A stretch of DNA of 64,000 nucleotides. It comes from Acidobacteriota bacterium (GTDB lineage Bacteria > Acidobacteriota > Terriglobia > Acidiferrales > UBA7541). Below the pieces are notes generated by a model that worked only from the letters and a program-made list of their open reading frames with translations, searched no databases and was not told the origin of the DNA. Shown here in pieces: positions 23,472 to 64,000 of this stretch; position 1 is the stretch's first letter, and the number at the start of each line of letters is the position of its first letter. Made by a program: the position numbers and the translations under genes. Location of the stretch: assembly GCA_021324935.1 (NCBI GenBank), contig JAJPIE010000029.1, forward strand, positions 18,697 to 82,696, in the 5' to 3' direction.

Positions 23472-24401
23472 TCACATCGCGACCCAGCCTCTGAGAATTC
23501 CGTAAAGGGACAACGAGCCTACAATCAACCACAAAACTACACCAAGTGCCATCGGACGCCAGCCGACCTGTCGCAGCGTCTCCCGCGAGATGCCCGCTCC
23601 GATCAGAAAAAGAGTCGCCGTCAAGCCAAGGCGCCCCGCTTGAAAAAGCCAGTGATAACCCGTGGAAAGCATCGGCAGGTAGGTGTTCAAAACCGCCGCG
23701 AGACAAAAGAATAGAATGAACCACGGAAACTGAATCTTCGACTTGCTGTGCTTCAGCGCTGCGGTCACCAGCGCCAAAGGCACGATCCACAACGCGCGCG
23801 CGAGCTTCACCGTGGTGCCGATAATGAGCGACTCCGCGCCGTAGCGCGATGCCGCGCCGACCACGGAACTTGTGTCGTGAATTGCCAGAGCCGCCCACAA
23901 GCCAAACTGCGTCTGCGAAAGTTTCAGAAAGTGCCCGAAAGGAGGAAAAATCAGCAAGGCAACGGAATTGAGAACGAATACAGTCCCCAACGAAATGGCC
24001 ATCTCTTCCGCATCCGCATGCAGGATCGGGCCGACGGCGGCAATCGCACTGCCGCCGCAAATCGCCGTTCCGGTGGTGATCAGATAGCCGGAGTTGCCGC
24101 CCACTTCCAGCAATTTCGCCAAGGTAAGTCCAACCAAGAAAGAGAAGCTGATTCCCAGCGCCGTGTAAATGAACCCGTTGCGGCCGGCCTTCAGCACCTC
24201 GTGCAGATTCATCCCGAAGCCGAGGGCAATCACGGAGAGCTGCAGCAGCAGCCGCGCGCCGGTGCGGCTCTGTTTTGGGAGCGGATTGGTGAGAATTAGT
24301 CCGAACAGAATTCCCAGCGTCAGCGCCACCGGGGGTGAAATATATCCGCTGAAACATGCAACAAAAAGCAGGATGAAAAATACGATGCGCGCTGAATCCA
24401 T
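23472..24401 (-). CDS. YeiH / putative sulfate exporter (PSE, UPF0324) membrane protein
   Basis: Multi-TM protein with GTAICGGSAIAAV, AIHDTSSVVGA and TVKLARALW. Confidence 0.9.
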   Translation of the reverse strand: MDSARIVFFILLFVACFSGYISPPVALTLGILFGLILTNPLPKQSRTGARLLLQLSVIALGFGMNLHEVLKAGRNGFIYTALGISFSFLVGLTLAKLLEVGGNSGYLITTGTAICGGSAIAAVGPILHADAEEMAISLGTVFVLNSVALLIFPPFGHFLKLSQTQFGLWAALAIHDTSSVVGAASRYGAESLIIGTTVKLARALWIVPLALVTAALKHSKSKIQFPWFILFFCLAAVLNTYLPMLSTGYHWLFQAGRLGLTATLFLIGAGISRETLRQVGWRPMALGVVLWLIVGSLSLYGILRGWVAM

Positions 24402-24487
24402 GGACTCCTTTGAACTTTAGTGTGGTCTAGGTTCTTCTGCATCCTGCCGCGGAGTTTCGCGCGGCTTCGATAATATTCGGGCCATGG

Positions 24488-25192
24488 TCAGCCGTTGAAA
24501 TTTAAGAATATCGGCGACAATGGTTTTAACTGAAAGCACAGATGGTCACCCGCTTCCACCCAAATCGGCGGAGTGATCGAACCGGCGATGATGACCTCGC
24601 CCGCCCGCAGTTTCTCTCCGAAGTAGGAGAGCAGGTTGGCGACATGGCCGACAATCTGAATCAATTCTCCCGTTAAAGCCTCCAGATCAAAAGTGTCGGC
24701 AATCACAGCCTCATTTCGCTCCACGTGCGCTTGCAACCCCGTAAGTTTGCCGCCGGCGTAAGCTGTATCACACGCTCCCAGAGTCAGGTGGCGCTGATAG
24801 ATGTCCCGCGCGAGCGTTCCTTCCACATCTTCGGCTGGATGATCCACGTCCGCCACTTCAATCGCCGCGCCAAGTCCGGCAATCGCGGCTCGAAGACTCT
24901 CCCGGTCTGCGTTGGCTGCGATGTCCTTGCCGAGATAGACGGTCACCTCCGGCTCCGCGGCCGGCTTGGTCCAATCTGCCAGGGAAACCGTGGATCTCGA
25001 AGGAACGACGGCATCCGCCATGAGAAATCCCACCAGCGGCGCATTGATTTTCAACCGCTGCATTGCCGCGGGGCCGCCGAAAGCGAGCTTCCACCCGAGA
25101 GGCTTTTTGCCCTGCTCCAGCAACTCGCGACGCCAGCGCAACTGGCTCTTCATGCCGCTGACGATTCGCGGGTCTTCCCACGGAAGTGTCAT
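24488..25192 (-). CDS. 2-keto-4-pentenoate hydratase / fumarylacetoacetate hydrolase family protein
   Basis: GWKLAFG, AEPEVTVYLGKD, AAIEVAD, LRAGEVIIAGSIT. Confidence 0.8.
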   Translation of the reverse strand: MTLPWEDPRIVSGMKSQLRWRRELLEQGKKPLGWKLAFGGPAAMQRLKINAPLVGFLMADAVVPSRSTVSLADWTKPAAEPEVTVYLGKDIAANADRESLRAAIAGLGAAIEVADVDHPAEDVEGTLARDIYQRHLTLGACDTAYAGGKLTGLQAHVERNEAVIADTFDLEALTGELIQIVGHVANLLSYFGEKLRAGEVIIAGSITPPIWVEAGDHLCFQLKPLSPIFLNFNG

Positions 25193-25210
25193 CGCAAGCT
25201 CACTCTCCGC

Positions 25211-25612
25211 TCAGTAACCCTCGGGCGGAATTTCGTAACCGGCGGCCTCCAGCGATCCGGCGCCGCTCCATCCCCAGACGAGTACCACGTCTTCCTTGCC
25301 GGTGTTGTCGAAGCCATGCCAGTGCCCACGAGGCGTGAAAATCACGTCGCCCTTGGTGGAAGGCTCGCGGCCCGTGTCGGTGTAAATGTAACCGCTACCC
25401 TGGAGCACGATAAAAAATTCGTCGCAATTCGGGTGGCGATGCTTGTCGTGGCGCGCGCCTGGCGGCAAAACGGTCCAACCGATCAGCAATTTGTCGGATT
25501 GCACCGTTTTCTGATCGATCAGAAACTGCACCTGCATGTTGATCCAGCCTTCGTCTTCGCGGAGCCCCCCCACGCGCGGCACATCGCGCAGATTCGTTCG
25601 ATACGGCTTCAT
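25211..25612 (-). CDS. Cupin domain protein
   Basis: PPGARHDKHRHPNCDEFFIVLQG and PRGHWHGFDN metal-binding cupin motifs. Confidence 0.88.
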   Translation of the reverse strand: MKPYRTNLRDVPRVGGLREDEGWINMQVQFLIDQKTVQSDKLLIGWTVLPPGARHDKHRHPNCDEFFIVLQGSGYIYTDTGREPSTKGDVIFTPRGHWHGFDNTGKEDVVLVWGWSGAGSLEAAGYEIPPEGY

Positions 25613-26493
25613 GATGACATCCCTCCCATCCGTCGGTAGACCTCATATACCGTAACAAAATCGTGTTGCTGCAATCCCAGCCCCCGGCAGGCGTTCAGGA
25701 GTTCATTCGCCGCGGCGCCCAGTGGCACCGGCAGGCCCATTTTTCTGCCAAGATTCAGCGCCAGGAGCATGTCCTTCTGCTGCAGATCCACGCTGCCATA
25801 AGTTGCATCGGAAATGTGTCCTTCCAAAATCAGCGGCGCGCGGTAGGCAATCACCGGCGAAGCAACCACGCTCTTGAGCATCGCGTCCACGGCTACCTCG
25901 CGCGGCACACCGCCTTTTTCGGCCAGCGCCACGCCTTCGCAGAAGCCAATTACCTCGATCACCAGGGTCATATTCAGCGCCACCTTTAGCTGGATCGCCA
26001 GCCCTTGCGCGCCGATATATGTCACCTTCGGCCCGATCGCCAGCAACAAAGGCTGCACACGCTCGAACGCTTCCTGTGGGCCACCCGCCATCAGGGAGGC
26101 CTTGCCCTGTCCGATGGTGAGCGTCGTGCCGGAGATGGGCGTATCCATCATCGTCAGCCCGGCCTTGGCGAATTCCACGCCAATTTCACGGCTGACTTCG
26201 GGATCGATGGTGCTCATGTCGCAATAAATTCCGTCCTTGCGCAACCCGCGAATGACACCGTTTTCACCGAGAGCGATGTTTCGCACCGCATCCGAATCGG
26301 TAACGATCGAGATCACCACGTCCGATTCTGTGGCAAGTTCCCGCGGCGAATTCGCCCAGATCATTCCTAGCTTAAATAGCGGCTCGCCCTTTTCCTTCGA
26401 GCGGTTCCAACCGGTGACCTGGTGCCCCGCGGCCAACAACCGCGGCACGATGGCCTTCCCCATATCACCGAATCCAATAAAGCCGACCTTCAC
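25609..26493 (-). CDS. NAD(P)-dependent beta-hydroxyacid dehydrogenase (3-hydroxyisobutyrate/tartronate-semialdehyde reductase family)
   Basis: VGFIGFGDMG, DMSTIDP, DTPISG, MAGG, catalytic LK. Confidence 0.9.
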   Translation of the reverse strand: MKVGFIGFGDMGKAIVPRLLAAGHQVTGWNRSKEKGEPLFKLGMIWANSPRELATESDVVISIVTDSDAVRNIALGENGVIRGLRKDGIYCDMSTIDPEVSREIGVEFAKAGLTMMDTPISGTTLTIGQGKASLMAGGPQEAFERVQPLLLAIGPKVTYIGAQGLAIQLKVALNMTLVIEVIGFCEGVALAEKGGVPREVAVDAMLKSVVASPVIAYRAPLILEGHISDATYGSVDLQQKDMLLALNLGRKMGLPVPLGAAANELLNACRGLGLQQHDFVTVYEVYRRMGGMSS

Positions 26494-26548: not shown

Positions 26549-27571
26549 TTAGTGTTTCAAATGCTTGTCGAAGTATTCCATGAAGATATCAAACGTCTTC
26601 TCCTGAATGGCATCCGGCTTGTAAGAGCCGTCCGGCTGGTTGAAGATGAAAACGTATCCGTGCACGGGATGATCGAAGCTGGCCCATTGCACATCCTTCC
26701 CTGCCTCTTTCATCCACTCATAGGTCAGCTTGAAGATTCCTTGCTGGTGATCGGTTTCGCGGCCAAAAATCAGTATCGGGGTGTGGATGCGTTCAATGCG
26801 CTCCATCGCCGCAGTCTTATTGGCGTTCTTTCGCGCGACTTCGATGTCGTTGTACTGAATTTCATTGTCTTTTCGCGGCGCGGTCGGCCCCGTGTTGACA
26901 CTGAGGAATTCGTGATCGGCAGGCTCAATGCAAACCCCCGCCCCGAACGTGAATTCGCTCGCCGCCTTCATGATCATCTCTCCGCTGTGGCTCACACCCA
27001 TCGCCCCCACGGCGTTCTTGTCCACGTACGGCAGCGTTTGCAGATACCGGATGACCGCAATCAGATCTTCATGATCGAGGGTCGGTCCGGATTTCAGCAT
27101 TCGGCGCTCGCCGCTAATGCTGTCCGGCAGATTTTGCGGCGGCTTGGAGCTTTCGTAGGCGTAGGGAATCTCATTCCTGTAGTTGACCGTTGCCACCACG
27201 TAGCCGCGCGCGATCATGCGATCCTGCATTTGCGTCAGCCGCTCGGAAAGGTCCTCCACCTTCTTCATCCCCTCGCGGCCTTCGCCCCATCCCATCGTGA
27301 TTACCGGAAATGGACCTTTTCCCTCCGGCTTGCGGACCAGGATCGGCACGTAGATTTCGTCGCGCGTCAGTACGAACGTGTAGTCGCCCGGCACCTTGGC
27401 TCCGGTGATTTGACTCCGTGACACGACGTACCCGTGGGATGAAATCGCTTCGGCGGGCGGCTTGCCAGTGCTGAGTTGCGCCTGGACCACGGCAGACTTT
27501 GAGGGTAAAAAGAGCGGAGCCGCCAAGATCGCACCCATCACCCACAAAACTCCCTGATAGTGAACGCGCAT
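26549..27571 (-). CDS. Secreted alpha/beta hydrolase (dienelactone hydrolase / peptidase S9-like)
   Basis: Signal-like N-terminus, KGPFPVI, nucleophile elbow GAMGVSHSG, C-terminal HPVHGY. Confidence 0.75.
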   Translation of the reverse strand: MRVHYQGVLWVMGAILAAPLFLPSKSAVVQAQLSTGKPPAEAISSHGYVVSRSQITGAKVPGDYTFVLTRDEIYVPILVRKPEGKGPFPVITMGWGEGREGMKKVEDLSERLTQMQDRMIARGYVVATVNYRNEIPYAYESSKPPQNLPDSISGERRMLKSGPTLDHEDLIAVIRYLQTLPYVDKNAVGAMGVSHSGEMIMKAASEFTFGAGVCIEPADHEFLSVNTGPTAPRKDNEIQYNDIEVARKNANKTAAMERIERIHTPILIFGRETDHQQGIFKLTYEWMKEAGKDVQWASFDHPVHGYVFIFNQPDGSYKPDAIQEKTFDIFMEYFDKHLKH

Positions 27572-27742: not shown

Positions 27743-28771
27743 ATGAAAAGTTCTTTATTCGCAGCTTCTGCAGCCCTGTTTTTCATGGCCGCGTCTGCTT
27801 GTTTGGCGGCTCAATCCAACGCGGCTCCAACTCCAGAGCGCCCTTTGGTTCTTACGGAGGCCATTCCAACGCCTGGCGTCCAAGGACGCTTTGATCATTT
27901 TGGCTTCGATGGCAAAAATCGCCTGTTTGTGGCCGCGCTTGGCAACAACTCGGTCGAAGTCATCGACATCAGTGCGCGCGTTCGCGACCGCTCGATCACA
28001 GGCATTCCGCGGCCGCAAGGAGTCGTCTACTCGCCCGAAGCAAAGAAACTGTTTGTGGCTAGCAGCCAGGGGCTTCTCCGCATTTTCGATGGCGCTTCCT
28101 ACAATCTGATCAAGGAGATCGATTTTCACGGCGACGTGGACAATCTCCGCTACGATTCCTCCACGCATCGCGTTTACGTTGGTTTCGGCGAGGACGAAAC
28201 CGGCGCCATCGGCATTGTCGACGCTCTCACCAACGAGCGGCTGCCCGAAGAATATATACTCGGCGCGCACCCGGAGTCTTTTCAGCTCGAATCGCAAGGA
28301 CCCAACATTTATGTGAATCTTCCCGATCTGAAGCAGATTGCCGTTATCAATCGCAAGACCGGCGCCATCACGCGCTGGCCCATGACGCTGGAACACAATT
28401 TTCCGATGGCCTTGGATGAAGCGGATCACCGGCTATTCGTCGTTACCCACGAACCCGCGCGTCTGGCCGTTTTTGACACTGCCTCTGGAAAAGCCATCGC
28501 TGAACTTGCTTGCGTGCAGGATGCCGATGATGTCTACTATGATGCCTCTCGAAAGCGTATTTACGTTTCCGGAGGAGAAGGCTACATCAGCGTGTTCCAG
28601 CAGTCCGACCCTGATCACTATGCGTTGCAAGCCAAGGTTCCCTCAACGCTCGGCGCACGCACTTCCGGCTATTTCGGGAAGGGGCAAAAGGGGTTCGACC
28701 GCTTTTTCATTGCCGTGCCGGCACGCGCGGATCACGGGGCAGAGATCTGGCTTTACACGGTCCAGGATTGA
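27743..28771 (+). CDS. YncE/YVTN-type beta-propeller secreted protein, second copy
   Basis: Signal peptide, GRFDHFG, RPQGVVY, HPESFQLE, DADDVYYD. RBS GGAGG. Confidence 0.85.
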   Translation: MKSSLFAASAALFFMAASACLAAQSNAAPTPERPLVLTEAIPTPGVQGRFDHFGFDGKNRLFVAALGNNSVEVIDISARVRDRSITGIPRPQGVVYSPEAKKLFVASSQGLLRIFDGASYNLIKEIDFHGDVDNLRYDSSTHRVYVGFGEDETGAIGIVDALTNERLPEEYILGAHPESFQLESQGPNIYVNLPDLKQIAVINRKTGAITRWPMTLEHNFPMALDEADHRLFVVTHEPARLAVFDTASGKAIAELACVQDADDVYYDASRKRIYVSGGEGYISVFQQSDPDHYALQAKVPSTLGARTSGYFGKGQKGFDRFFIAVPARADHGAEIWLYTVQD

Positions 28772-28904
28772 GACCGAAACTCCGGTGGAGCAAGATGTCT
28801 TCCGGGTGCCTGCCATTCAAGTCGACTGGACCTTGGAGATTTGGGGCAGGAGCACCGTCGATGATGCCAAACTCACACGGAAGAGCTTCACTTTCCACAG
28901 CTTA

Positions 28905-28919
28905 ATTGGTCAGTCCACA
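28905..28919. promoter_or_regulatory. Degenerate FadR/PdhR-type operator upstream of TonB receptor 2
   Basis: ATTGGTCAGTCCACA versus consensus ATTGGTC-N-GACCAAT. A promoter-like TTGACA (28984-28989), 18 bp, TACAGC lies downstream. Confidence 0.4.
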
Positions 28920-29071
28920 GTACCAATTCTTTTCCAAGGCTCTCGCTTATCACTTATTTTGCTTTGTAAAAGAAAGGAAATAGTTGACAATCTGCATCGT
29001 ATGATGGTACAGCGGCTATACCTATTGTGCGGGATTCTTCTCCCGAGCAGGGGATTTTACAGGGGTGTGTC

Positions 29072-32000
29072 ATGTTGAATTGTGTCAGTTTGAAAAAGTC
29101 CGTTGGGGTCATGGCTGTCTTCCTCGCGGTTCTTCTCTTCTCGCTCCCGGCCTTTCCTCAGGGCAACACCGGGCGCATCCTGGGCACGGTGACGGACCAG
29201 ACGGGTGGGTACATTGCAGGAGCAACGGTCACCGTCACCGACGTGGCGCGCGGCGTTACGCAAACGCTGACCACCGACGCGGATGGCGCATACGTCGCTA
29301 TAAACTTGATCGCGGGCACTTACACGGTGAAGGCGGAGTTCAAGGGTTTCAAGACCTTCGAACGGAAAAACGTCCTCGTGGAAGTCGGTAAGGACGTGCG
29401 CGTAGATCCCGTGCTGCAGACCGGCTCGCAGACGGAAACGATCACCATCACCGAAGAAGTCCCAATGGTCGACACCACTTCGACTACGCTCGGCGGTACG
29501 ATCAGCAACACGACTATCAATGAGATTCCCCTGAATGGCCGGAACTACCAGAACCTGCTGACGCTGCGTCCGGGCACAACGGTATATCCCGGTGGTGGCC
29601 CGTGGACGCAAACGACCAACGGCGCGCGCCCCGAAGACACCAGCTACCTGGTCGATGGATTGAGCAACGACGAATCGTTCATGGGCTTCAGCGTCACCAA
29701 TGCCGCTGCCGTCGCGGGCGATGCGGCCACGATCCTGCCCATCGACGCGATTCAGGAATTCAACACGCAGGTCAACCCGAAGGCGGAATTCGGCTGGAAA
29801 CCCGGCGCCATCACCAGCGTTGGTTTGAAGTCCGGCACGAACGAGATTCACGGTTCGGCTTATGCGTTCGGCCGCTCGGACGCTTTCGACGCCCGCAACT
29901 ACTTCAATCCTGTTGGCACTCCGCAGACGCCGGTGGAGCTCGAGCAGTACGGCGCGACGGCTGGCGGACGCTTCGTGAAAGACAAGGCTTTTTGGTTTGG
30001 CGGGTTTGAGAATCGCAATTACACCGTGGGGAATTCCATTCAGACGAATTCGCCGACCACAGTGTCGACGGGAAATCCAGCTATCAGTATTCCGGACGCA
30101 CTCGCCGGCCTTGCCGCACAAGGCGTACCCTTTAGCGCCCAGAGTCTTTACCTCCTTGGCTGCCCAGCCAACATCACAGCCCCGTACACTTCTTGCACAG
30201 GCGGGGCTTACGGTCCAAACGCTACGGGCGGCAAAACGCTAACTGGTGGATTCCCTGACGTAGATTCTTCGCGGAATGCTATCGGCAAAGTGGACTATCA
30301 CATCAATGAAAAGAACACGCTGAGCGGATCGTATTTCTTCGGGAACGACAACATCACCGCCGAGGATTCCCCTGAATTGCTTCCATCCTATGGCACAGTG
30401 ATCCACTCCCGGGCACAGGCTGCCGCAGGTCACTATGCATGGACTCCCAATGCTACGTGGGCGAATGACTTAAGAATCGGCTATACGCGCTATCATCTGA
30501 CAATCATTCCAGCGAACGTTGGCACATCGTATCAACTCAACACAGGCCTTGCCCCCGATGTTGTGTCTGTCGTTGGCGGGCTGCCCAACGTGCGCATCAA
30601 GGGTTTCACGGAACTTGGGGGATTCCACAATTTCCCAAAACTCGTCGGTCCGGACAACGTCTACGACTTTGTAGATCAGGTGTCTTACCTGAAAGGAAAG
30701 CATGCTTTCAAATTCGGCGGAGAGGCTCGCATCGATAAAGTTCTCCAGGGCACTTATCGCGGAGCCCGAGGGCGCATCGCGTTCAACGCGAACGGCCCCT
30801 TCAACGGCGCAACTCCTCTGGAAAGCTTCCTTGCTGGTATTCCAACCAATGCATCCATCCTGGCAGGCGATCCCATTCGTGACATGACGCAAAATCTGAT
30901 GGCGCTCTTCGCGCAGGACGACTGGCGCGTCTCTCGCAATGTCACCTTGAACCTGGGCGTTCGCTACGAACTGCAAGGCGTGCCGAGCGAAGCCAGCAAC
31001 CTGCTCGGAAACTGGGAACCGAACGTAGGCCTCGAACAGGTGGGCAAGAATATCGGCTCGCTCTACAAAAAGGATCCTACCAATTTTGCGCCGCGAGTCG
31101 GCGTCGCGTGGGATGTCACTGGAAACGGGACTACTGTGGTCCGTGCGGGTGCAAGCATCGTTTACGACCTTCTCTCCATGAGCACCTTCCTCTCGCAACA
31201 GGACACGAACAACACCGTTACCCTCGGTTCAAACGTGGTGCCGACCGGTGCCGCGATTCAGGTCAATGGCGTAACCACCCCGGGCATCGGCAATATCGTT
31301 GCCTCGGGTATCACCTTGCCAGCCTCTGAGCTGAACTGGAATGGCTCGTCAGTTGGGGGAGCAGGCATTTATCCTTCGAACCTGACCTCGCAGGTGGTGT
31401 GCGGGGACGGCAAGACGGTCAGCACCCCAACTGGTCCTGTCACTGACGCCGGTCCGTGCGACATTTTCGCGATGGATCGCAACTACAAGACTCCTTATGT
31501 AACGACCTGGACGCTGGGCATCCAGCATGCTTTTACCAACAAACTCTCGCTGGACGCCGCCTACGTCGGAAATCACGGCTCGCGGTTGACCGGTATTCAG
31601 GACTTAAACCAGCCCGCAGTTGGCTCCGGTTGGACGCCCGCTGCGATCGCCGCTGGCGCAGCCGATCCCAACGCGGAAGCCGCCGCACGGCCATACACCC
31701 TCAACGGGCAATACCCGTATCTGGGTTTCATCAACTACTACTCGAACATTTATCATTCAAACTACAACGGCCTGCAAATGACATTCACGGGCCGAAATTT
31801 CCATGGTCTTGACTTCGTCGCGGGCTATACCTATTCTCACGCCAACGACAACCAGTCCTACAACTGGAACCAATATCTGCCCCAAAACAGCGCTAGCCCG
31901 AACCTTGAATACGGTGCGAGCGACTTCGACATCCGTCACCGCTTCACACTTTCTGCCACGTACACGATTCCCGGCAAGAAGGGATACGGCCAGTTGCTGG

Positions 32001-32724: not shown

Positions 32725-32756
32725 GGGGCCGGACTTGTTCCGGCCCCTTCTTTTTT
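32725..32756 (+). terminator. Rho-independent terminator
   Basis: GGGGCCGGA / TCCGGCCCC stem plus TTCTTTTTT. Confidence 0.8.
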
Positions 32757-35845: not shown

Positions 35846-35848
35846 CGC

Positions 35849-36133
35849 TCACCACCTTTTCGTTTTCATGTTGTGGACATGCACGTGATGCCCCTTGCCG
35901 ATTTCCGCGATGGCGCGGCCCACATCGTGGCCGTATTTGAGGATGGTGTCGCCGGGACGAATGTCGTTGAGGGCGATTTTGTGGCCCAGCGGCACCGGGT
36001 CGAGGGATTTGAGGGAGATAGTTTCATCCGTCTCCATGATCCAGCCGTTCAAGTCCGCGCCGGCTGGCACGTCTTCCACAACCATGACGCCGACGGTGTC
36101 GGCTTTGTCGTGCACAATAAAATGCGTGATCAT
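35849..36133 (-). CDS. suyA: SAF-domain alpha subunit of UxaA/SuyAB lyase
   Basis: FIVHDKADTVGV...GWIM...PLGHKIAL...KYGHDVG...HVHVHNMKTKRW. Confidence 0.75.
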   Translation of the reverse strand: MITHFIVHDKADTVGVMVVEDVPAGADLNGWIMETDETISLKSLDPVPLGHKIALNDIRPGDTILKYGHDVGRAIAEIGKGHHVHVHNMKTKRW

Positions 36134-36890: not shown

Positions 36891-36971
36891 ATTCTCGTAA
36901 TACGGTACTATGGGTGGGCCATTCATGCAACTTTATTCTCTTATTCCCGCCCACTCTAATTCGAGGTTACC

Positions 36972-53614: not shown

Positions 53615-53681
53615 AGCTTTCGCAAGCTATTCCTGGAGAGGGGATCAGAGCGCCGGCCACTTTGTGCGTCCGGCCCGAACC

Positions 53682-56667: not shown

Positions 56668-57543
56668 TTATTCCACCCAGGTTTGCTGGCCGAACGCGAT
56701 CTGCCAGTGCCCTTCGTGTTTTTCAAACAAGCGCGTGACGTGCAGGATTTTCCCGTGCCGCGGCTTGTGCTCGGAGCGCATCACCGCCGCGTCTCCAAAC
56801 ACCCAGATCTTCATGGACAATACTTCCGCAGGGATCAGTGTCGTGTTGGTCCGGCGAAGTTCCTTGATCATGGCCACGCGGTCGGCTTTGTTGAGAGGAG
56901 TGCCACCGTCGGGCGTTACGAAAAGAAAATCGTCGGTAAAATTCGGAATCCACGCTTCGACGTCGTTCGTTAAAACTGTCCGCTCCACCGCCTGCCACAT
57001 CGTTGCCACTTCCTGTTCATCGGGCGTATCTGCCTTGAACGGCATCGTCTTGCAGGGATTTTCGCAATGCACCGGCTCGCCGTTGCTGGGAGCGCCAAAA
57101 CCCGCGCGCTTTTCCGGATTCTTTTCCGCCTTGTTTGTCTCCTGATAAATGAGCAGTTGCCAGGCTGCGGGACGCTTGACCCATACCCGGACGAAGCGCA
57201 CGTTCACATCCTGCGAAGGAAGAAAATGGGAACCGCGCACCAACACCACCGTGCCGGCATCCATCAATTGCACATCCGAGTCGTGCCCCGTTGAGAGAGA
57301 AGAGAGCTCGGAGAGATATTCCACCTTGGTCATCGTCATGCCCTTGCGGTCCGTGCCAGCGAAATCGGGATCCAGGAGTTTTGCGAGCGCCGCGCGATCC
57401 GCATCGTGGAACGCGGCAGTGAAGGCGCGATCAATCTTCATGACTTCGTCCCGGGAACTTGCAGCGAGTACGGGGAGCGAGAGGGCGCACAGCGTGAAAA
57501 GCAGGCACACCAGAGTTAGGAGAGATCGAACAGGATAGCGCAT
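56668..57543 (-). CDS. Secreted tandem DUF4440 protein, paralog 3
   Basis: Signal peptide MRYPVRSLLTLVCLLFTLCALSLPVLA, LDPDFAGTD, linker CENPCK, FTDDFLFV, HVTRLFEKHEGHWQ. Confidence 0.82.
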   Translation of the reverse strand: MRYPVRSLLTLVCLLFTLCALSLPVLAASSRDEVMKIDRAFTAAFHDADRAALAKLLDPDFAGTDRKGMTMTKVEYLSELSSLSTGHDSDVQLMDAGTVVLVRGSHFLPSQDVNVRFVRVWVKRPAAWQLLIYQETNKAEKNPEKRAGFGAPSNGEPVHCENPCKTMPFKADTPDEQEVATMWQAVERTVLTNDVEAWIPNFTDDFLFVTPDGGTPLNKADRVAMIKELRRTNTTLIPAEVLSMKIWVFGDAAVMRSEHKPRHGKILHVTRLFEKHEGHWQIAFGQQTWVE

Positions 57544-57568
57544 GAGGGCCTCCCGGAGGCTGCTGGCA

Positions 57569-57583
57569 ATTGGTCGGACCAAT
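57569..57583. promoter_or_regulatory. FadR/PdhR-type operator (perfect palindrome)
   Basis: ATTGGTC-G-GACCAAT in the divergent intergenic region 57544-57796. Confidence 0.8.
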
Positions 57584-57796: not shown

Positions 57797-59380
57797 ATGC
57801 CTGACCTTTTCGACATCGTGGTTGCAGGAGCAGGACACAACAGCTTGATCGCGGCTGCCTATCTGTCAAAGGCTGGCTACCGCTGCCTAATCCTGGAAGG
57901 CCGGCCCCTGGTCGGCGGCGGAGTAAAGACTGCGCAGCTCACCCTGCGCGGCTTTCATCACGATACCTGCTCTTCGGCCCATGTCTTGATCCAGGACAGC
58001 CCGCTGATGCGCAACAACGAGTTGCATCTGGATCAGTACGGGCTCGAGTATCTCTTTCCAGACCCCGTTGTTCACCTTCCTTTTTCCGATGGCAGCTACA
58101 TCACCCAGTGGCGCGATATCGATCGCACCTGTCAGGAATTTGCCAAGTTTTCGAAAAAAGACGCTGAGGCTTATCGCCGCATGATGACGGAATACGAAGA
58201 GATGCAGCCGATCTTCGCCGCGGCGGCGTATACGCCCATTGGTTTCGGCAAACCACTGAACGAGCGTCTGGCGGAACATCCCAAAGGCAAAATCTGGCAG
58301 CGACGGATGGCAATGTCCGCTTGGGAAATTATTCGCGATACTTTTGAGGATGAGCATTGCCGCGCATTTATGGTGTGGATGGCATACCAGACGGTTGAGC
58401 CGCCTGAAGCAGCGTCCACGGGGCGACTCGCGTATGCGATTTGCGCCGGCCGGCAGCGCTGGAGTTGGACTACCCCGAGGGGCGGCTCGGGCAGCTTGAC
58501 GCAGGCGCTGGTCCGCTTGATTGAGGCGCACGGCGGCGTGGTACTTACCAATAAAAACGTGACTCGCCTGATTCTTGACGATGGCAAATGCACCGGAGTG
58601 GAGTGCAGTGACGGGACTTCCTACAAAGCGCAAAAAGCCGTGCTCTCGACCATTCACATCAAGCATCTGGTCGACATGGCGCCCAAGGAAGCATTCGGCG
58701 AAGACTTTCGGGCGGGAGTGGATTCCTGGCAGGCGGGAATTACGCTCTTCGCCAGCCACTATGCGACCACCGAGCCTCCGAAATTCCCTGTCGCCGGCGG
58801 CACGCTTTCTCCTGTGGCCGCGGGAACCATGGCGAATGCCGAGCGCGGATTGCGGGTTTCTTACGACTTTGCGATGCGCAACGTGAACGTGGAGGAACCG
58901 CCGTTACTCGTGGTTTGCAGCACGGTGGCCGATCCTTCCCGTGCGCCCCAAGGAATGCACACGATCAAAGTGATTGGCAACCAGCCTTACGAATTGAAAG
59001 AAGGTCCCGAGCACTGGGACGAGATCAAGGACAGAGTTTCCGAAGCCAACCTGAACTACCTGCGGAAGTTCGCGCCGAATCTGACCGAGGACAAAATACT
59101 GGCGCGGCTGGTGGAAAGCCCTCTCGACCTGGAACGCATGAACGCGCACAATTGGCATGGCACTTGCCACGGCGGCGCGCAAAACGCCGCGCAATCCGGC
59201 GCGTTGCGCCCTGTGCCGGGCTGGGCCCAGCACCGCATGCCGATTCCCGGGCTCTACCAGACAGGCGCAACCACGTACCCGGGCGCATCCGTTTCCGGCG
59301 GGCCGGGAAGAAACGCTGCCACGGTAATGCTGAAGGATTTTGGCTCGAGCATCGAGCAGGCAATTGAAGGCAAGGCCTAG
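57797..59380 (+). CDS. FAD-dependent oxidoreductase COG1233, paralog 2
   Basis: MPDLFDIVVAGAGHNSL; same family motifs as paralog 1. The ORF-track extension to 57542 runs through the regulatory region and is unlikely. Confidence 0.88.
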   Translation: MPDLFDIVVAGAGHNSLIAAAYLSKAGYRCLILEGRPLVGGGVKTAQLTLRGFHHDTCSSAHVLIQDSPLMRNNELHLDQYGLEYLFPDPVVHLPFSDGSYITQWRDIDRTCQEFAKFSKKDAEAYRRMMTEYEEMQPIFAAAAYTPIGFGKPLNERLAEHPKGKIWQRRMAMSAWEIIRDTFEDEHCRAFMVWMAYQTVEPPEAASTGRLAYAICAGRQRWSWTTPRGGSGSLTQALVRLIEAHGGVVLTNKNVTRLILDDGKCTGVECSDGTSYKAQKAVLSTIHIKHLVDMAPKEAFGEDFRAGVDSWQAGITLFASHYATTEPPKFPVAGGTLSPVAAGTMANAERGLRVSYDFAMRNVNVEEPPLLVVCSTVADPSRAPQGMHTIKVIGNQPYELKEGPEHWDEIKDRVSEANLNYLRKFAPNLTEDKILARLVESPLDLERMNAHNWHGTCHGGAQNAAQSGALRPVPGWAQHRMPIPGLYQTGATTYPGASVSGGPGRNAATVMLKDFGSSIEQAIEGKA

Positions 59381-59404: not shown

Positions 59405-61075
59405 ATGAAGAAAATCACGCGACGAGGATTCGTGAAGAGCGCGGCCATTGCGCCGCTGGCCGTGAAGCAGATGGCGCTGCAGCAAGTGGCGGGAGTTTCG
59501 GACAAGTACGACTTCGTCGTTGCAGGGGCGGGGCACAACAGCCTGATTACAGCGGCTTATCTGTGCAAAGCGGGTTTCCGCTGCCTGGTTCTGGAGGGCC
59601 GGCCGAAGATTGGCGGCGGCGTGAAGACTGCGGAACTCACCTTGAAAGGTTTTAACGACGATTGCTGCTCCACAGCTCACGTTTTCATCCAGGAAAATCC
59701 GATGATGAAAAACAATGAGCTGAACCTCGGCGAATACGGGCTGGAATACATCGATCCCGACCCGATGTTCCACGTTCCTTTTCCCGACGGCACGTACATC
59801 ACCCAGTGGCGCGATGTGGACCGCACTTGCGCGGAATTCGCCAAATTCTCCAAAAAAGATGCGGCTGCCTACCGCAAAATGCTGGCGGACCTGGATGCCA
59901 TCCGCCCGATCATCGCGGCGGGATCGTTTACGCCAATCGGATTTGGGAAACCGCTGAACGATCAACTCGCGCAAATCCCGCATGGAAAAATGTGGCAGCG
60001 CCGGCTGGCTATGTCGGCGTGGGACATCATCCACGACAATTTTGAAGACGATCATTGCCGGACGTTCATGCTGTACATGTCGCACCTGGCCGCCGAACCG
60101 CCGGATGCGCCGGTGACGGGACGTCTCGCCTACGGCGCGCCCCGCCAACAGCATAGCGGCCGCCCGCTTCCAAAGGGCGGCTCCGGAATGCTGACGGTAG
60201 CGCTCGGCCGCTTCATCGAAGCGCATGGCGGCACGATTCTGGTGAACAAATGGGTGAAGAGCCTGATCGTGGAAAATGGAAAGTGCGCTGGAGTGGAGTG
60301 CAGCGACGGCAGCGCGTACCGCGCTTCTAAGGCGGTGGTCTCCACCATCCATATCAAGCACCTGGTGGACATGGCACCGAAAGAACTTTGGGGCGAGGAT
60401 TTTCTCTACGGCGTGCAAACGTGGCAAGCGGAAAACGCCATGTTCGTTACGCATTACGCCACCAGCGAGCCGCCGATTTACAAAGTCGATGGCGGCACGC
60501 TGTCGCCCGTGGAATCGGGGGTTCTGGCTTCACCTTACCGGGCGCTGCGGTTCGCCTTTGACGATACCCGGGGTTCGATCAACCTCGACGAGCCGCCCCT
60601 GCAGGTGATTTGTTGCAGCATTGCCGATCCTTCACGCGCCCCGAAGGGCATGCACACACTTAAGGTGCTGGGCTGGCAGCCGTATCAATTGAAGGAAGGC
60701 CCGGAGCACTGGGACAGCATCAAGAACGACGTTTCCGACGCCAACTTGAAATATCTGCGCCGCTTCGCGCCGAACCTGACCGACGACAAAATCCTGGCTC
60801 GCTTTGTGGAAAGTCCGCTTGACCTGGAGCGCATGAATCCGCATTTCTGGCACGGCAGCGCGCACGCGGGAGCGCAAAACGCGGCGCAAAGTGGCGCGCT
60901 GCGTCCGATGGCCGGCTGGGCGCAGCACCGGATGCCGATTCAGGGCCTCTATCAGACAGGTGCCACAACGCATCCGGGCGGCTCGGTTACCGGCGGCCCG
61001 GGGCGCAATGCAGCGACTGTCATTCTAAAAGATTTCGGCATGTCGATCGAAGAAGTGGCGGCAAAGAAAGCCTGA
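59405..61075 (+). CDS. FAD-dependent oxidoreductase COG1233, paralog 3, with twin-arginine leader
   Basis: MKKITRRGFVKSAAIAPLAV precedes DKYDFVVAGAGHNSL. Confidence 0.88.
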   Translation: MKKITRRGFVKSAAIAPLAVKQMALQQVAGVSDKYDFVVAGAGHNSLITAAYLCKAGFRCLVLEGRPKIGGGVKTAELTLKGFNDDCCSTAHVFIQENPMMKNNELNLGEYGLEYIDPDPMFHVPFPDGTYITQWRDVDRTCAEFAKFSKKDAAAYRKMLADLDAIRPIIAAGSFTPIGFGKPLNDQLAQIPHGKMWQRRLAMSAWDIIHDNFEDDHCRTFMLYMSHLAAEPPDAPVTGRLAYGAPRQQHSGRPLPKGGSGMLTVALGRFIEAHGGTILVNKWVKSLIVENGKCAGVECSDGSAYRASKAVVSTIHIKHLVDMAPKELWGEDFLYGVQTWQAENAMFVTHYATSEPPIYKVDGGTLSPVESGVLASPYRALRFAFDDTRGSINLDEPPLQVICCSIADPSRAPKGMHTLKVLGWQPYQLKEGPEHWDSIKNDVSDANLKYLRRFAPNLTDDKILARFVESPLDLERMNPHFWHGSAHAGAQNAAQSGALRPMAGWAQHRMPIQGLYQTGATTHPGGSVTGGPGRNAATVILKDFGMSIEEVAAKKA

Positions 61076-61118: not shown

Positions 61119-61667
61119 ATGATGGGGAGCGCGACGAGTAGTCGATTTGGAATCACGGTTTCATTGGCAGCAGCCCTTCTTTTTTTGTGTCCAGCCACGC
61201 GGGCGCAGCAGTCCGTGAAAATGGTGCCCGACAATCCCAGCCCGCATCCCGCTCCCGAGCAGCCAATTCCTTACAGCCACAAACAGCATCTGGCTTTCAG
61301 CCTGCCGTGCAAACGCTGTCACACAAATCCAGAACCCGGCAACTTAATGACGTTCCCTGCGACCTCGGTTTGCATGCAATGCCATGCGTCGATCGCGAAA
61401 GACAAAACGTCTATTCAAAAGCTGGCGTCTTACGCCGCTTCAAACCAACCCATTCCGTGGGTACGCGTCTATAAAGTCCTGCCCGGCGTCGCTTGGAGCC
61501 ATCGCCCGCACCTCGATGCAGGAGTAAAATGTGAGACGTGCCACGGCGAGGTCGCCGAGATGGCCACCATGTCGGAAGTCACCAGTGTCACCACGATGTA
61601 CAGTTGCCTGCACTGCCACGAAATGAATCACGCGAAATCTTCCTGCGACACTTGCCACAAACGCTGA
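61119..61667 (+). CDS. Periplasmic pentaheme c-type cytochrome (class III / ActA-like)
   Basis: Signal peptide, five CxxCH motifs (CKRCH, CMQCH, CETCH, CLHCH, CDTCH), plus PIPYSHKQH, IPWVRVY and WSHRPH. Confidence 0.9.
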   Translation: MMGSATSSRFGITVSLAAALLFLCPATRAQQSVKMVPDNPSPHPAPEQPIPYSHKQHLAFSLPCKRCHTNPEPGNLMTFPATSVCMQCHASIAKDKTSIQKLASYAASNQPIPWVRVYKVLPGVAWSHRPHLDAGVKCETCHGEVAEMATMSEVTSVTTMYSCLHCHEMNHAKSSCDTCHKR

Positions 61668-61700
61668 TCTGTTCAACGGACTCGCGGAAAGGGATGCAGA

Positions 61701-62180
61701 ATGGCCGGAAGTCTTCAGTTGGAAATCAATGGGAGGCGTGTTTCGGTCAGCTATCCTCCCGAGACGCCTCTCCTCTATGTGTTGCGGGACGAATTAGGCC
61801 TGACTGGCACGAAGTATGGCTGCGGTGAGGGCATGTGTGGCGCTTGCACCGTGCTGATCGGAGGAACGGCGCGAAGGTCGTGCCAGATTCCCGTAAGCGC
61901 GGCAGCATCGCGGCCCGTCACAACCATTGAGGGCCTGGAAAAAGACGGCGCGCTACATCCCGTACAACAGGCATTTCTCGATGCCGGCGCATTTCAATGC
62001 GCTTACTGCACCTCCGGCATGATCATGAGCAGCGTGTCCTTGCTGAATGCAAATCCGCATCCCACCCGTGAGCAGATCGTGCAGGCGATGCAGGGGAATG
62101 TCTGCCGCTGCGGAACACATCCGCGCATTATCGAGGCCATCGAGAAAGCAGCCGGCCAGATGCAGGGGCGTGCCAAGTGA
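61701..62180 (+). CDS. (2Fe-2S)-binding small subunit of a molybdenum hydroxylase (CoxS/IorA-like)
   Basis: GTKYGCGEGMCGACTV, QCAYCTSG, VCRCGT. Confidence 0.93.
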   Translation: MAGSLQLEINGRRVSVSYPPETPLLYVLRDELGLTGTKYGCGEGMCGACTVLIGGTARRSCQIPVSAAASRPVTTIEGLEKDGALHPVQQAFLDAGAFQCAYCTSGMIMSSVSLLNANPHPTREQIVQAMQGNVCRCGTHPRIIEAIEKAAGQMQGRAK

Positions 62181-64000
62181 AGCCCGCGCTGGATTGGATG
62201 GATCTCGAACCGGAGCGCTACGAATTCCGCGCTCTGCCTATGCACCAATTCGCGCTCGGCCGCCGCGACTTCGTCAAGATCTTCGGCGCCGGGCTCGCGG
62301 TCTTTGCCGTGGTGAAAAAAACCGCGGCGATGCAGGAAACCGCGCCTGGCCCGCACGGATTCCACACCGAAGAACTTCCGAAAGACATTGGCGCCTGGCT
62401 GCACATTGGCGAAGATGGCAAGGTCACCGGCTTTGTCGGCAAGGCGGAAATCGGACAGAATGTGCGCACTTCGCTCTCGCAAACGCTGGCCGATGAATTG
62501 GGCGTGCCTTTCGAGAGTGTGCATCTCGTCCTCGCCGATACGGCGCTTACCCCGTTCGATGCCGGCACATTTGGGAGCCGCAGCACGCCGACGATGACCC
62601 CGCAACTCCGGAAGATGGCGGCGGCAGCGCGCAGCATTCTGATCGAGCGCGCCGCGAAACAATGGAGCGTGAGCCCGGACAAACTCGCTGCTGCGGACGC
62701 GAAGGTCTCTGATCCAACCTCGGGAAAATCCCTGAGCTATGCGGAACTTGTGCGCGAGGACATTGGCAAGGAGACGCCACCGCCAGACGAGCACACGAAG
62801 CCTGCCGCACTATGGACCATTGCGGGAAAGCCCATCCCCAAAGTGGACGCTCGCGCGTTTGTCACCGGCAGCCACCGCTACAGCACGGACCTGCGCCCGG
62901 AAGGCATGCTTTATGGCAAGGTGCTGCGGCCCCCTTCGTTCGGAGCGACGATTGCCAGTTACGACGACGCTGCAGCCAAAGCGATGGCGGACGTCGTCAT
63001 CGTGCGCGACGCCGATTTCGTTGGTGCCGCCGCTCCCACCGCAGCGGCCGCGGAAGCGGCGCTGGCCAAGATTCAAGTGCAATGGAAAGAGGTGCCGCAG
63101 ATTTCCGGCAAGGACATCTTCGCTTATCTGAAAAAGAACGCCGAACCTTCGAAAGACGAGCGATTCCGCAAAGCAAAGGGTACAGTTTCCGATGGATTGG
63201 AAAAAGCTGCCCACAAACTGGAATCGTCCTACACGGTGGCCTACATCGCGCACGCGCCGCTGGAGCCTCGCGCCGCTCTGGCTCAGTGGAACGGCGGCAA
63301 GTTAACCGTCTGGATGGGAACGCAAAGGCCGTTTGCAGTACGCGATGACCTGGCGGACCTGTTCCATATCGCGGAGAAGGACGTCCGGGTGATTGTGCCG
63401 GATACCGGCTCCGCGTACGGCGGCAAGCACACCAGTGATGCGGGGCTGGAGGCCGCGCGAATTGCCCGAGCGACCTCAGGCCGCCCCGTAAAGCTGATCT
63501 GGACGCGCCAGGAAGAGTTCACCTGGGCCTATTTCCGCCCTGCCGGCGTAATCGAAGTGAAGAGCGGCGTCGCTGCCGATGGCAAATTGACTGCGTGGGA
63601 ATTTCACAACTACCACTCGGGCATGTCAGCGATTGAGACGCCGTATGACGTGGCAAATCAGCTCACGCAATATCACCAAGTGCCGCTGGTGCTGCGCTCA
63701 GGTTCCTATCGGGGGCTTGCGGCGACCGCGAATCATTTCGCCCGCGAAACCCAGATGGATGCGCTGGCTCGAGCCGTGTCGATGGATCCGGTGCAGTTCC
63801 GCCTGACGAATCTTTCCGACGCGCGCATGAAGGCGGTGATCGAAGCCGCCGCGAAGGCGTTCGGCTGGCCGAAATCAAAAAGCGAGGCGGGCCAAGGGTT
63901 CGGCATGGCCGCAGGTTACGAAAAAGGCAGTTACGTGGCAACTTTCGCCGAAGTATTCGTGGATCCAAAAACGAAGAAGGTCCGCGTGACGAAATTGGTG
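62177..64000 (+). CDS. Molybdopterin-binding large subunit (IorB / aldehyde oxidoreductase-like), Tat-exported, truncated by window end
   Basis: Absent from the ORF track because it is open-ended. GTG 62177 overlaps the upstream TGA and reads MKPALDW...GRRDFVKIFGAGL...GKAEIGQ...DAGTFGSRS...AHAPLEP...GSAYGGK...SYRGLA and is still open at 64000. Confidence 0.9.
   Translation, partial: MKPALDWMDLEPERYEFRALPMHQFALGRRDFVKIFGAGLAVFAVVKKTAAMQETAPGPHGFHTEELPKDIGAWLHIGEDGKVTGFVGKAEIGQNVRTSLSQTLADELGVPFESVHLVLADTALTPFDAGTFGSRSTPTMTPQLRKMAAAARSILIERAAKQWSVSPDKLAAADAKVSDPTSGKSLSYAELVREDIGKETPPPDEHTKPAALWTIAGKPIPKVDARAFVTGSHRYSTDLRPEGMLYGKVLRPPSFGATIASYDDAAAKAMADVVIVRDADFVGAAAPTAAAAEAALAKIQVQWKEVPQISGKDIFAYLKKNAEPSKDERFRKAKGTVSDGLEKAAHKLESSYTVAYIAHAPLEPRAALAQWNGGKLTVWMGTQRPFAVRDDLADLFHIAEKDVRVIVPDTGSAYGGKHTSDAGLEAARIARATSGRPVKLIWTRQEEFTWAYFRPAGVIEVKSGVAADGKLTAWEFHNYHSGMSAIETPYDVANQLTQYHQVPLVLRSGSYRGLAATANHFARETQMDALARAVSMDPVQFRLTNLSDARMKAVIEAAAKAFGWPKSKSEAGQGFGMAAGYEKGSYVATFAEVFVDPKTKKVRVTKLV

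Follow-up and report, generated by a model that had tools for sequence, protein, structure and literature searches.

The stretch analysed here, 64,000 nt of acidobacterial DNA (contig JAJPIE010000029.1; hereafter 'the window'), carries from position 23472 to just beyond its right end an uninterrupted run of catabolic genes. We think it probable that this run is a supercluster of acid-catabolism modules, put together within its lineage on the chromosome of a Candidatus Acidoferrum-like acidobacterium, as opposed to one operon-like pathway. As a system it is of a familiar kind—an uncharacterised, GntR-controlled acid-catabolic cluster—with two unusual features. One is a creatininase-fold enzyme in a sugar-acid-like operon common to several phyla. 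The other, as far as gene content and order indicate, is a pyruvate dehydrogenase (PDH)-like complex with an embedded DddP-like M24 gene, apparently coupled to a periplasmic flavoprotein/cytochrome/molybdenum (Mo) system.

Genes were called from third-position G+C content and their products scanned against Pfam and NCBIfam; Sec-type signal peptides were judged by eye. The 35 genes from 23472 to the window end are catabolic, transport or regulatory genes, or encode exported proteins with no assigned role. The first-pass annotation of this DNA, made from the letters alone, had described a dense catabolic and uptake run without housekeeping genes. This was borne out, and the scans recovered every family it had listed, each in its place; absent from it were three exported proteins with two DUF4440 domains each, two beta-propellers and a YeiH-family protein. 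Its statement that the combination is not a described pathway also stands: neither the family libraries nor the searchable literature gave a match, and a literature search on these gene combinations found nothing relevant. An NCBIfam equivalog or whole-protein cut-off was reached only by the two C4-dicarboxylate transporters (DctA), and the E1beta protein passes only the PDH-E1beta subfamily model (386 vs 321 bits).

The supercluster extends over ~40.9 kb (23472 to ~64330), its right end lying 330 bp past the window, and the Pfam and NCBIfam scans revealed no housekeeping genes within it. Beyond the window end (L099 12854-20480; L numbers are our locus identifiers), the last gene, for an Mo subunit, is followed by an HTH_28 fragment, UvrD, DUF6946, an N6_N4 methyltransferase and ResIII, a restriction-modification or defence block that forms the right border of the cluster. 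G+C content is flat across the window (0.56-0.61), no tRNA was found in the region, and the borders hold no integrase, only the HTH_28 fragment and the restriction-modification block on the right. With no G+C shift and no tRNA, the region is an island in gene content, not in composition; a horizontally acquired, compositional or mobile island was rejected, given the lack of a G+C shift, tRNA or integrase. A Bacteroidota-type polysaccharide utilisation locus was likewise rejected, as the region has no SusD and no glycoside hydrolase or lyase domain. No Rfam families, riboswitches included, were found that could serve as a ligand clue. The window matches a contig of the metagenome-assembled genome (MAG) GCA_037025105.1, and the same DNA is present in soil and mine metagenomes.

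A core module shared across phyla

The module that recurs most widely has a four-gene core (Gfo/Idh/MocA dehydrogenase, creatininase-fold hydrolase, cupin B and D-2-hydroxyacid dehydrogenase). In this window the core diverges from genes for a GntR regulator and a split UxaA/GarD enzyme and is followed by a DctA gene.

34679-35845, minus: large chain of the split UxaA/GarD enzyme (388 aa, GD_AH; here UxaA_L; Pfam, NCBIfam)
35849-36133, minus: small, SAF-like chain of the same enzyme (94 aa; Pfam, NCBIfam)
36174-36926, minus: GntR1, GntR/FCD regulator (Pfam)
36896-36911: box A, CGTAATACGGTACTAT, palindrome 5' of the Gfo gene, proposed GntR1 operator
36972-38045, plus: Gfo/Idh/MocA dehydrogenase
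38056-38859, plus: creatininase-fold hydrolase
38853-39257, plus: cupin B
39254-40234, plus: D-2-hydroxyacid dehydrogenase
40324-41667, plus: DctA1, C4-dicarboxylate transporter (NF002461, 570 vs 513 bits)

The hydrolase has more than 3300 homologues at E ≤ 1e-10, of which the best 120 are 71-91% identical and all but one at least 77%. Counting one genome per species, relatives number at least 584; the best 80 of these loci carry proteins of 72-85% identity and come from Acidobacteriota, Alpha-, Beta- and Gammaproteobacteria, the closest genome matches being Candidatus Acidoferrum/Acidoferrales MAGs. We compared these 80 loci with the window by tblastn of its 35 proteins, sampling neighbourhoods of ±10 kb. 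The Gfo/Idh/MocA dehydrogenase was present in 76 loci, cupin B in 67, the D-2-hydroxyacid dehydrogenase in 61, GntR1 in 40 and the split UxaA/GarD enzyme in 20, Proteobacteria included. DctA1 follows the core in 19 loci, all of them acidobacterial; in Proteobacteria a TctABC/Bug or NitT/TauT ABC system takes its place. A second, IolG-like Gfo gene comes after the core in 13 loci, an FrsA-like hydrolase gene was found in 16, and E1beta, M24 and E2 (all encoded in the right half, see below) in none.

Box A occurs once in the 64-kb window and is kept at the same position in ~40 loci from Acidobacteriota, Alpha-, Beta- and Gammaproteobacteria; three alphaproteobacterial loci have a second copy 5' of a TctC gene. 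The true start of GntR1 is probably at ~36812 (212 aa; compare the gene call in L002), so that the putative operator falls inside the long open reading frame (ORF). With a palindromic putative operator in a divergent promoter, co-conserved with GntR1, the arrangement would be that of a GntR/FCD regulon. The spread of core loci over several classes, together with the conserved box A, argues that the core with GntR1 and its candidate operator is a self-contained, widely exchanged, cross-phylum GntR regulon, and the conservation of the hydrolase across phyla suggests horizontal exchange combined with strong constraint. Between Acidobacteriota and Alpha-, Beta- and Gammaproteobacteria the hydrolase keeps 72-91% identity, above the values for the adjacent cupin (49-81%) and 2-hydroxyacid dehydrogenase (55-79%). 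When we looked for a core copy on a plasmid or in a cultured organism, the only match was a 42%-identical Haloarcula protein, and the inspected clusters contained no members from cultured organisms, all being MAGs or metagenomes.

By family scores the hydrolase is about equidistant from creatininase (97 bits), MftE (94) and IolN (57). It stays below the cut-offs for creatinine amidohydrolase (TIGR04448, 96.6 vs 235 bits; best solved relative 54 bits) and for IolN 3-dehydro-scyllo-inosose hydrolase (NF041098, 56.6 vs 245 bits). A creatinine/creatine pathway was set aside: sarcosine oxidase is missing, the M24 protein resembles DddP and not creatinase and lies in the other regulon, and the transporters are for dicarboxylates. 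A KdgF-like role for cupin B was rejected, no KdgF structure being among its PDB matches. The Gfo/Idh/MocA dehydrogenase has a close solved relative in PDB 3DB2 (232 bits), a structural-genomics entry without assigned function. In L007 (13614-15842), L013 and L017, the gene for a different IorB-like Mo subunit (28-29% identical to that of the window) separates DctA1 from the FrsA-like gene, which ties the core to Mo enzymes a second time and independently.

A second gene set with PdhR-type boxes

To the right of DctA1, a further 18 genes and two copies of another palindrome, box B, reach from 41719 to the end of the cluster.

41719-42960, minus: exported FrsA/Ayg1-family alpha/beta hydrolase (Pfam)
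42957-43979, minus: orphan NMT1/SsuA-like periplasmic binding protein (Pfam, NCBIfam)
43976-45613, minus: beta-propeller with a faint LVIVD match, exported by twin-arginine translocation (Tat); start probably 45580
45816-45830: box B1, ATTGGTCAGACCAAT, PdhR/LldR-type palindrome in the divergent LVIVD/ALDH promoter region
45885-47261, plus: SSADH-like aldehyde dehydrogenase (ALDH)
47397-48110, plus: GntR2, GntR/FCD regulator, NanR/LldR/PdhR-like
48162-49043, plus: HIBADH-like dehydrogenase B
49040-50038, plus: E1alpha
~50031-51026, plus: E1beta
~51052-52395, plus: DddP-like M24 protein
52427-53614, plus: E2
53664-54953, plus: DctA2 (NF002461, 616 vs 513 bits)
54981-56555, plus: flavoprotein A, CrtI/CrtO-like, cytoplasmic
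56668-57582, minus: DUF4440c, exported, two DUF4440 domains
57569-57583: box B2, ATTGGTCGGACCAAT, in the divergent DUF4440c/FlavB promoter region
57797-59380, plus: flavoprotein B (FlavB), cytoplasmic
59405-61075, plus: flavoprotein C (FlavC), Tat motif TRRGFV
61119-61667, plus: exported pentahaem c-type cytochrome, c7/c3/QrcA-like, five CXXCH motifs
61701-62180, plus: IorA-like 2Fe-2S subunit
62177 onwards, plus: Tat-signalled IorB-like molybdopterin subunit (717 aa), ending ~330 bp beyond the window

The three flavoproteins are of CrtI/COG1233 type. Parts of this half recur as units. In L093-L095 the genes for ALDH, GntR2, HIBADH, E1alpha, E1beta, M24, E2 and DctA stand together in loci that lack both the core and the Mo module, and in L096 the same ALDH-to-DctA unit lies beside a diverging FrsA-like gene and a TonB receptor. 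Scanning metagenomes with flavoprotein C returned 80 loci, ~40 of which are colinear with the right half; wherever a locus is long enough, the same-strand genes after the E1/M24/E2 unit encode flavoprotein A, flavoprotein C, the cytochrome and then the iron-sulfur (FeS) and Mo subunits. The more distant of these loci lack DUF4440c and flavoprotein B. The best 120 M24 clusters are 84-98% identical to the window protein, some with thousands of members (up to 5859 sequences in a 90% cluster); the DddP-like M24 protein ranks among the more abundant uncharacterised proteins in acidic soils.

Box B (ATTGGTCNGACCAAT; ATTGGTC[A/G]GACCAAT) is a PdhR-type palindrome with two perfect copies in the 64 kb, where 0.0016 would be expected, and both lie in divergent promoter regions; B1 overlaps a promoter-like -10 hexamer. 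A long-spaced form, AATTGGT-N11-ACCAATT, with both half-sites and an 11-nt spacer, lies at 28904-28928, 5' of the TonB receptor gene listed below, and L017 and L020 have canonical TGGTCAnACCAAT boxes 5' of that receptor. Related boxes occur 5' of ALDH in L007, L013, L015 and L016, and between the receptor and GntR2 in L096. Across the DUF4440c/FlavB region, related palindromes were found in 11 of 23 relatives (background 0.09 per 430 nt); these are looser matches, and at ≤1 mismatch box B was seen in one metagenome locus only. Among FadR-subfamily regulators, the likeness of GntR2 to NanR, LldR and PdhR fits a PdhR-type box. Box B thus fits the part of a putative operator of a second regulon with GntR2, and the two distinct operator motifs point to two regulons. 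Promoter and terminator scans as a whole gave counts not above chance, and we used only the two strongest hairpins and the promoter overlapping box B.

Several name-giving matches fall short of family cut-offs. The complex falls short of a pyruvate dehydrogenase complex proper (E1alpha 346 vs 394 bits, E2 287 vs 445 bits; no E3 gene in the cluster), the M24 protein stays below the cut-off for DddP dimethylsulfoniopropionate lyase (NF043017, 119 vs 600 bits; PDB 4S00, 80 bits), and NADP-dependent succinate-semialdehyde dehydrogenase was a near miss for the ALDH (NF006915, 688 vs 730 bits). The best solved relatives of the FrsA-like hydrolase are Ayg1/Yg1-like polyketide-trimming C-C hydrolases (110 bits) and DHPON hydrolase (PMC11165489). 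The region encodes no ABC permease or ATPase. The LVIVD propeller has no sequence match in the PDB; its AF2 model (pLDDT 85.8) has as best fold match the Sb-PTE phosphotriesterase 5HRM, a binuclear-metal beta-propeller hydrolase (E 1e-18), generic WD40 folds matching only at 1e-9. A copper enzyme of the NosZ or methanethiol-oxidase kind was rejected, Sb-PTE hydrolase being the only specific fold match.

To the left of the core, nine further genes complete the cluster.

23472-24401, minus: YeiH-family (PF03601) membrane transporter at the end of the left operon (Pfam 171 bits; TIGR00698, 101 vs a cut-off of 233)
24488-25192, minus: FAH-superfamily protein, MhpD/HpaH/DmpH hydratase/decarboxylase-like, all scores far below equivalog cut-offs
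25211-25612, minus: cupin A, single-domain metal cupin (Cupin_2, 65 bits)
25609-26493, minus: HIBADH-family dehydrogenase A, tartronate-semialdehyde-reductase-like (191 vs 397 bits)
26549-27571, minus: exported DLH/S9-type alpha/beta hydrolase (Pfam; signal peptide by eye)
27743-28771, plus: exported YncE-like beta-propeller (Pfam, NCBIfam, signal peptide)
29027-32698, plus: TonB-dependent receptor with a CarboxypepD_reg N-domain, likely start 29072
32807-33673 and ~33751-34605, plus: two exported proteins with two DUF4440 (NTF2/SnoaL-like) domains each (Pfam)

A strong terminator lies 3' of the TonB receptor gene (32725-32747) and another after the split UxaA/GarD genes (34650-34629). Start codons were over-called in the long ORFs of GntR1, FlavB, M24, E1beta and DUF4440b. 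Sec-type signals were seen in the DLH-like hydrolase, the YncE-like propeller, the TonB receptor, the three DUF4440 proteins, the FrsA-like hydrolase, the binding protein and the cytochrome; twin-arginine motifs, in the LVIVD propeller (TRRDFL), flavoprotein C (as listed) and the Mo subunit (RRDFV).

Linkage of the modules and rival explanations

The modules meet again, in other orders, in distant genomes, which argues for a related function. In L052 (Acidipila), the core and DctA border directly on genes for FlavC, the cytochrome, a Tat flavoprotein, FrsA, Mo and FeS subunits and DLH, and unrelated DNA-repair genes come after the joined modules. Genes for DLH, propeller, TonB receptor and DUF4440 run directly into the core in L020 and L038; the DLH orthologues adjoining the core in these three loci are 76-80% identical to the window protein. 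Distant LVIVD homologues (~50% identity) have related genes around them in three of the four loci examined. Thus, L097 carries two TctC genes, LVIVD, M24, E1, E2 and RidA; L098 (Pseudomonadota) carries HIBADH, M24, a TRAP transporter, LVIVD, a TonB receptor, a metallo-beta-lactamase-fold protein, FrsA, E2 and E1beta; and L182 carries a c7 cytochrome, FlavC (53% identity), FAH, a thiamine-diphosphate enzyme, HIBADH, FeS and Mo subunits and LVIVD. In L183 the LVIVD gene stands alone with nothing related nearby. L009 (Rhodospirillales) joins the core itself to an LVIVD-like protein, HIBADH and M24. The M24, E1, E2 and Amidohydro_3 genes of L097 are fragmented, probably by frameshift error in a long-read assembly and not as pseudogenes. 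From these sequence comparisons we read the 41-kb stretch as a set of modules networked by related functions, and not as one pathway or as neighbours by chance.

Several points weigh against this network reading. The core lacks box B and box A is found nowhere else in the window, so the two halves may respond to different compounds. Among ~55 proteobacterial loci examined, M24 lies near the core in L009 only; the adjacency of the core to E1/M24/E2 is confined to the Acidoferrum lineage and might simply be inherited synteny. Only some of the relatives conserve box B, and both regulons are predicted from motifs only. The window sequence turned up in no RNA runs, only in soil and mine DNA runs. 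For every protein but DctA, function is assigned no more closely than to a family, with scores far short of equivalog cut-offs. A monocarboxylic uronate or cyclitol would be an unusual cargo for DctA, and the roles given to the cupin and the three DUF4440 proteins are guesswork.

The first-pass annotation had favoured one island serving one substrate. A single dedicated pathway in which all 35 genes act on one compound, for instance an N-heterocyclic or sulfonated one, would account for the uninterrupted catabolic content and for the recurrent re-association of modules in L052, L097, L098, L182 and L009; the names creatininase, M24 and Mo-hydroxylase evoke ring or amide chemistry, and YeiH 'sulfate exporter', SsuA-like, SuyAB-like and DddP-like evoke sulfur chemistry. 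We nevertheless consider it unlikely. The region has two distinct operators and two GntR regulators; in most of the 80 loci the core is found by itself, and in L093-L096 the E1/M24/E2 operon stands without the core. Paralogues (two DctA, two HIBADH proteins, two cupins, three flavoproteins) suggest that branches run in parallel or that substrates are related. All 'sulfur' and 'N-heterocycle' matches are far below family cut-offs, and the cysteine pattern of UxaA_L and its enolase-type replacement, described below, argue against a sulfo-lyase (PMC6336799). What stands of the one-island view is the purely catabolic content, a large share of it exported; the separability of the modules and the two operator motifs speak against its single substrate. 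The neighbourhood comparison, named beforehand as the check on that view, gave a divided answer, with independent occurrence of the core and of E1/M24/E2 on one side and re-association elsewhere on the other. The N-heterocycle hint is weakened, resting as it did on the names creatininase, M24 and Mo-hydroxylase, whose scores all lie far below cut-offs.

A fortuitous juxtaposition of unrelated acid-utilisation operons, as is common in large soil-bacterial genomes, seems to us improbable. In its favour, other genomes carry the modules apart, the region is not a compositional island, the full gene order is kept only among close relatives, and the LVIVD gene of L183 stands alone. Yet the same families recur together in different orders and phyla, as at three of the four distant LVIVD loci; in L052 the core is joined by the Mo/flavoprotein/cytochrome set, FrsA and DLH; and box B is common to promoters 12 kb apart.

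The split UxaA/GarD enzyme bears on a third alternative, in which it is a SuyAB-like lyase. Its 94-aa SAF-like and 388-aa GD_AH proteins both match regions of TIGR03248, and the nearest characterised relative of UxaA_L is galactarate dehydratase; it stays below the cut-off for GarD proper (TIGR03248, 140 vs 731 bits), and the enzyme is split and not a single chain. Split UxaA/GarD dehydratases have been predicted elsewhere (Watanabe et al., PMC6336799), so the two-subunit architecture seen here is not diagnostic of SuyAB. C151 and C289 of UxaA_L align with GarD cysteines, and C80, C151, C163, C181, C195 and C289 are invariant in 15 orthologues, whereas SuyAB is reported to lack the family's four conserved iron-binding cysteines (Watanabe et al., PMC6336799), the comparison here being with that description. 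In L033 and L053, an enolase-type gene resembling talarate/galactarate dehydratases occupies the UxaA slot after GntR1, and in five loci an LRA6-like diketo-acid hydrolase lies beside UxaA_L. The enzyme looks like a dehydratase rather than SuyAB, and on these grounds acid-sugar or cyclitol chemistry seems likelier than desulfonation.

The sulfonated-compound hint is weakened accordingly by the undiagnostic split architecture, the retained cysteines and the enolase-type gene in the slot. SlcHFG is a tripartite tricarboxylate transporter (TTT) for sulfolactate. A pathway for sulfolactate or another C3-sulfonate, in which the SuyAB-like enzyme releases sulfite and YeiH exports it, could draw on the two-subunit architecture, the YeiH-family protein 10 kb away, the TTT transporters flanking the core in Proteobacteria and the Frd/AprA-like flavoprotein with ferredoxin adjoining UxaA in L048 and L089, but it is very unlikely: besides the evidence just given, UxaA is absent from 60 of the 80 core loci, and no TauE/SuyZ, Xsc or sulfite dehydrogenase is present. 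The two gammaproteobacterial loci concerned, L048 and L089, have the Frd/AprA-like flavoprotein, a small 4Fe-4S ferredoxin and two TTT transporters in the split UxaA/GarD operon adjoining the core; the window has no equivalents of them.

A proposed route and its nearest known relatives

Returning to the supercluster of modules, we propose the following working scheme. Regulon 1 would consist of GntR1 acting at box A, between the split UxaA/GarD enzyme and the diverging Gfo-hydrolase-cupin-D-2-hydroxyacid dehydrogenase genes (plus DctA in Acidobacteria). Regulon 2 would have PdhR-type boxes at two divergent promoters that cover three gene groups—(i) the LVIVD hydrolase, the binding protein and the FrsA/Ayg1-like hydrolase; (ii) ALDH, GntR2, the HIBADH-like dehydrogenase, E1alphabeta, the DddP-like M24 protein, E2, DctA2 and flavoprotein A; (iii) DUF4440c, flavoproteins B and C, the pentahaem cytochrome and the IorAB-like Mo enzyme—with a degenerate box before the TonB receptor gene. 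The receptor would admit across the outer membrane an anionic, probably esterified or lactonised compound derived from plants, fungi or humus, whose ester, lactone or C-C bonds the periplasmic DLH-like, FrsA/Ayg1-like and Sb-PTE-like propeller proteins might open. The Tat-exported flavoprotein C and the Mo enzyme could then oxidise the products, passing electrons to the pentahaem cytochrome, and DctA1 and DctA2 could take up the resulting hydroxy- or oxo-dicarboxylates. In the cytoplasm, the core may act as a sugar-acid/cyclitol route: NAD-dependent oxidation, ring opening by the creatininase-fold hydrolase, isomerisation by the cupin, keto reduction and UxaA/GarD-type dehydration. A second branch through M24, the HIBADH-like dehydrogenase, ALDH and the PDH-like E1/E2 complex would lead to an acyl-CoA. 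The order proposed earlier from the letters, periplasmic hydrolysis or oxidation followed by carboxylate import and oxidative decarboxylation, fits this export topology.

As to the substrate, an aldarate-, uronate- or carboxy-cyclitol-like acid is our tentative first candidate. Aromatic or polyketide-derived acids are a weaker possibility, N-heterocyclic carboxylates are doubtful and sulfonates very doubtful indeed; the remaining probability goes to something else. More speculatively, the window might hold two undescribed, widespread soil pathways working on products of the same extracellular compound. In one, shared by Acidobacteriota and Proteobacteria, a creatininase-fold ring opener (lactonase or C-C hydrolase) would belong to a GntR-controlled carboxylated-sugar or cyclitol route; in the other, periplasmic oxidation by a Tat-exported CrtI-like flavoprotein, pentahaem cytochrome and IorAB-like Mo enzyme would feed a PDH-like complex with an integral DddP-like M24 protein.

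Among known systems, the myo-inositol route of Thermotoga maritima (TM0411-TM0416: IolG, IolM, IolN, IolO, then UxaB/UxaA) resembles the core in its Gfo protein and creatininase-family ring opener, and also in isomerisation, keto reduction and a UxaA-type dehydratase (intermediates in PMC5931981). Its IolN demonstrates that a creatininase fold can open a carbocyclic diketone (PMC5931981). The window differs in having a cupin and a D-2-hydroxyacid dehydrogenase instead of IolO and UxaB, a split dehydratase, di-/tricarboxylate and not inositol transporters, and a GntR/FCD regulator. Non-phosphorylative sugar-acid routes ('Route III', PMC6336799) proceed through an aldose 1-dehydrogenase, a lactonase, an acid-sugar dehydratase, a 4-dehydrogenase and an FAH-type diketo hydrolase. 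Their order of chemistry, the UxaA/GarD-superfamily dehydratase and, in relatives, the adjacent LRA6-like FAH hydrolase are shared; however, the hydrolase here has a creatininase fold and is not SMP30 or an amidohydrolase, the FAH protein of the window is MhpD-like and 10 kb away, and there is no sugar ABC transporter. The D-glucarate/galactarate pathway (GarD/GudD, GarL, GarR, GarK) shares a GarD-like dehydratase, two GarR-like HIBADH proteins and dicarboxylate uptake, whereas GarL aldolase, glycerate kinase and KdgD are missing here and GarD is a single chain of 523 aa. SuyAB is likewise a two-subunit UxaA/GarD-superfamily member; the enzyme here differs in its dehydratase-like cysteine pattern, the lack of adjacent sulfite-handling genes and the enolase-type replacement in some loci. 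A co-mention of creatininase and lactonase in a zearalenone review proved a reference-list coincidence and was discarded.

For the right half, periplasm-facing IorAB-type Mo dehydrogenases (such as NicAB nicotinate hydroxylase and membrane-bound aldehyde dehydrogenases) offer the same 2Fe-2S subunit, Tat MoCoBD subunit and adjacent cytochrome c, although here the cytochrome is a small pentahaem protein of c7/c3/QrcA type and the neighbours are CrtI/CrtO-like flavoproteins, one of them Tat-exported. E1alpha, E1beta and E2 are most PDH-like among the pyruvate and acetoin dehydrogenase complexes, from which they differ by the M24 gene between E1beta and E2 and by the lack of an E3 in the cluster; DddP provides the best solved and NCBIfam relatives of the M24 protein. 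The modelled fold of the Tat-exported propeller resembles Sb-PTE of Sphingobium TCM1, at 16-17% identity and with no detectable sequence match, and among the Ayg1/AntI polyketide-trimming hydrolases, Ayg1 is of one sequence family with the FrsA-like hydrolase. Unlike those enzymes, both window proteins are exported, and their setting is catabolic, neither biosynthetic nor xenobiotic.

The two conserved modules are both frequent in metagenomes from soil. Acidobacteriota dominate acidic soils and are hard to grow; were the substrates found, a sizeable block of 'hypothetical catabolism' in this phylum could be annotated and growth substrates might suggest themselves. The two operator motifs with their two regulators are a direct experimental handle. 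The family names creatininase, SuyAB-like and DddP-like mislead when taken as functions.

Upstream of the cluster, 1-23 kb of the window carry an M48 peptidase, another TonB receptor, two two-component systems and an RND pump. At 22068-23387, two adjacent minus-strand ORFs of 231 and 160 aa, each with a partial AhpC/TSA domain and one also with DsbD_N, have the appearance of one thiol-disulfide protein interrupted by a frameshift or stop; L012, too, has small AhpC fragments close to its core. Further left, on the minus strand at 6761-11020, a 1038-aa TonB-dependent receptor and a 362-aa beta-propeller resemble the pair at 27743-32698.

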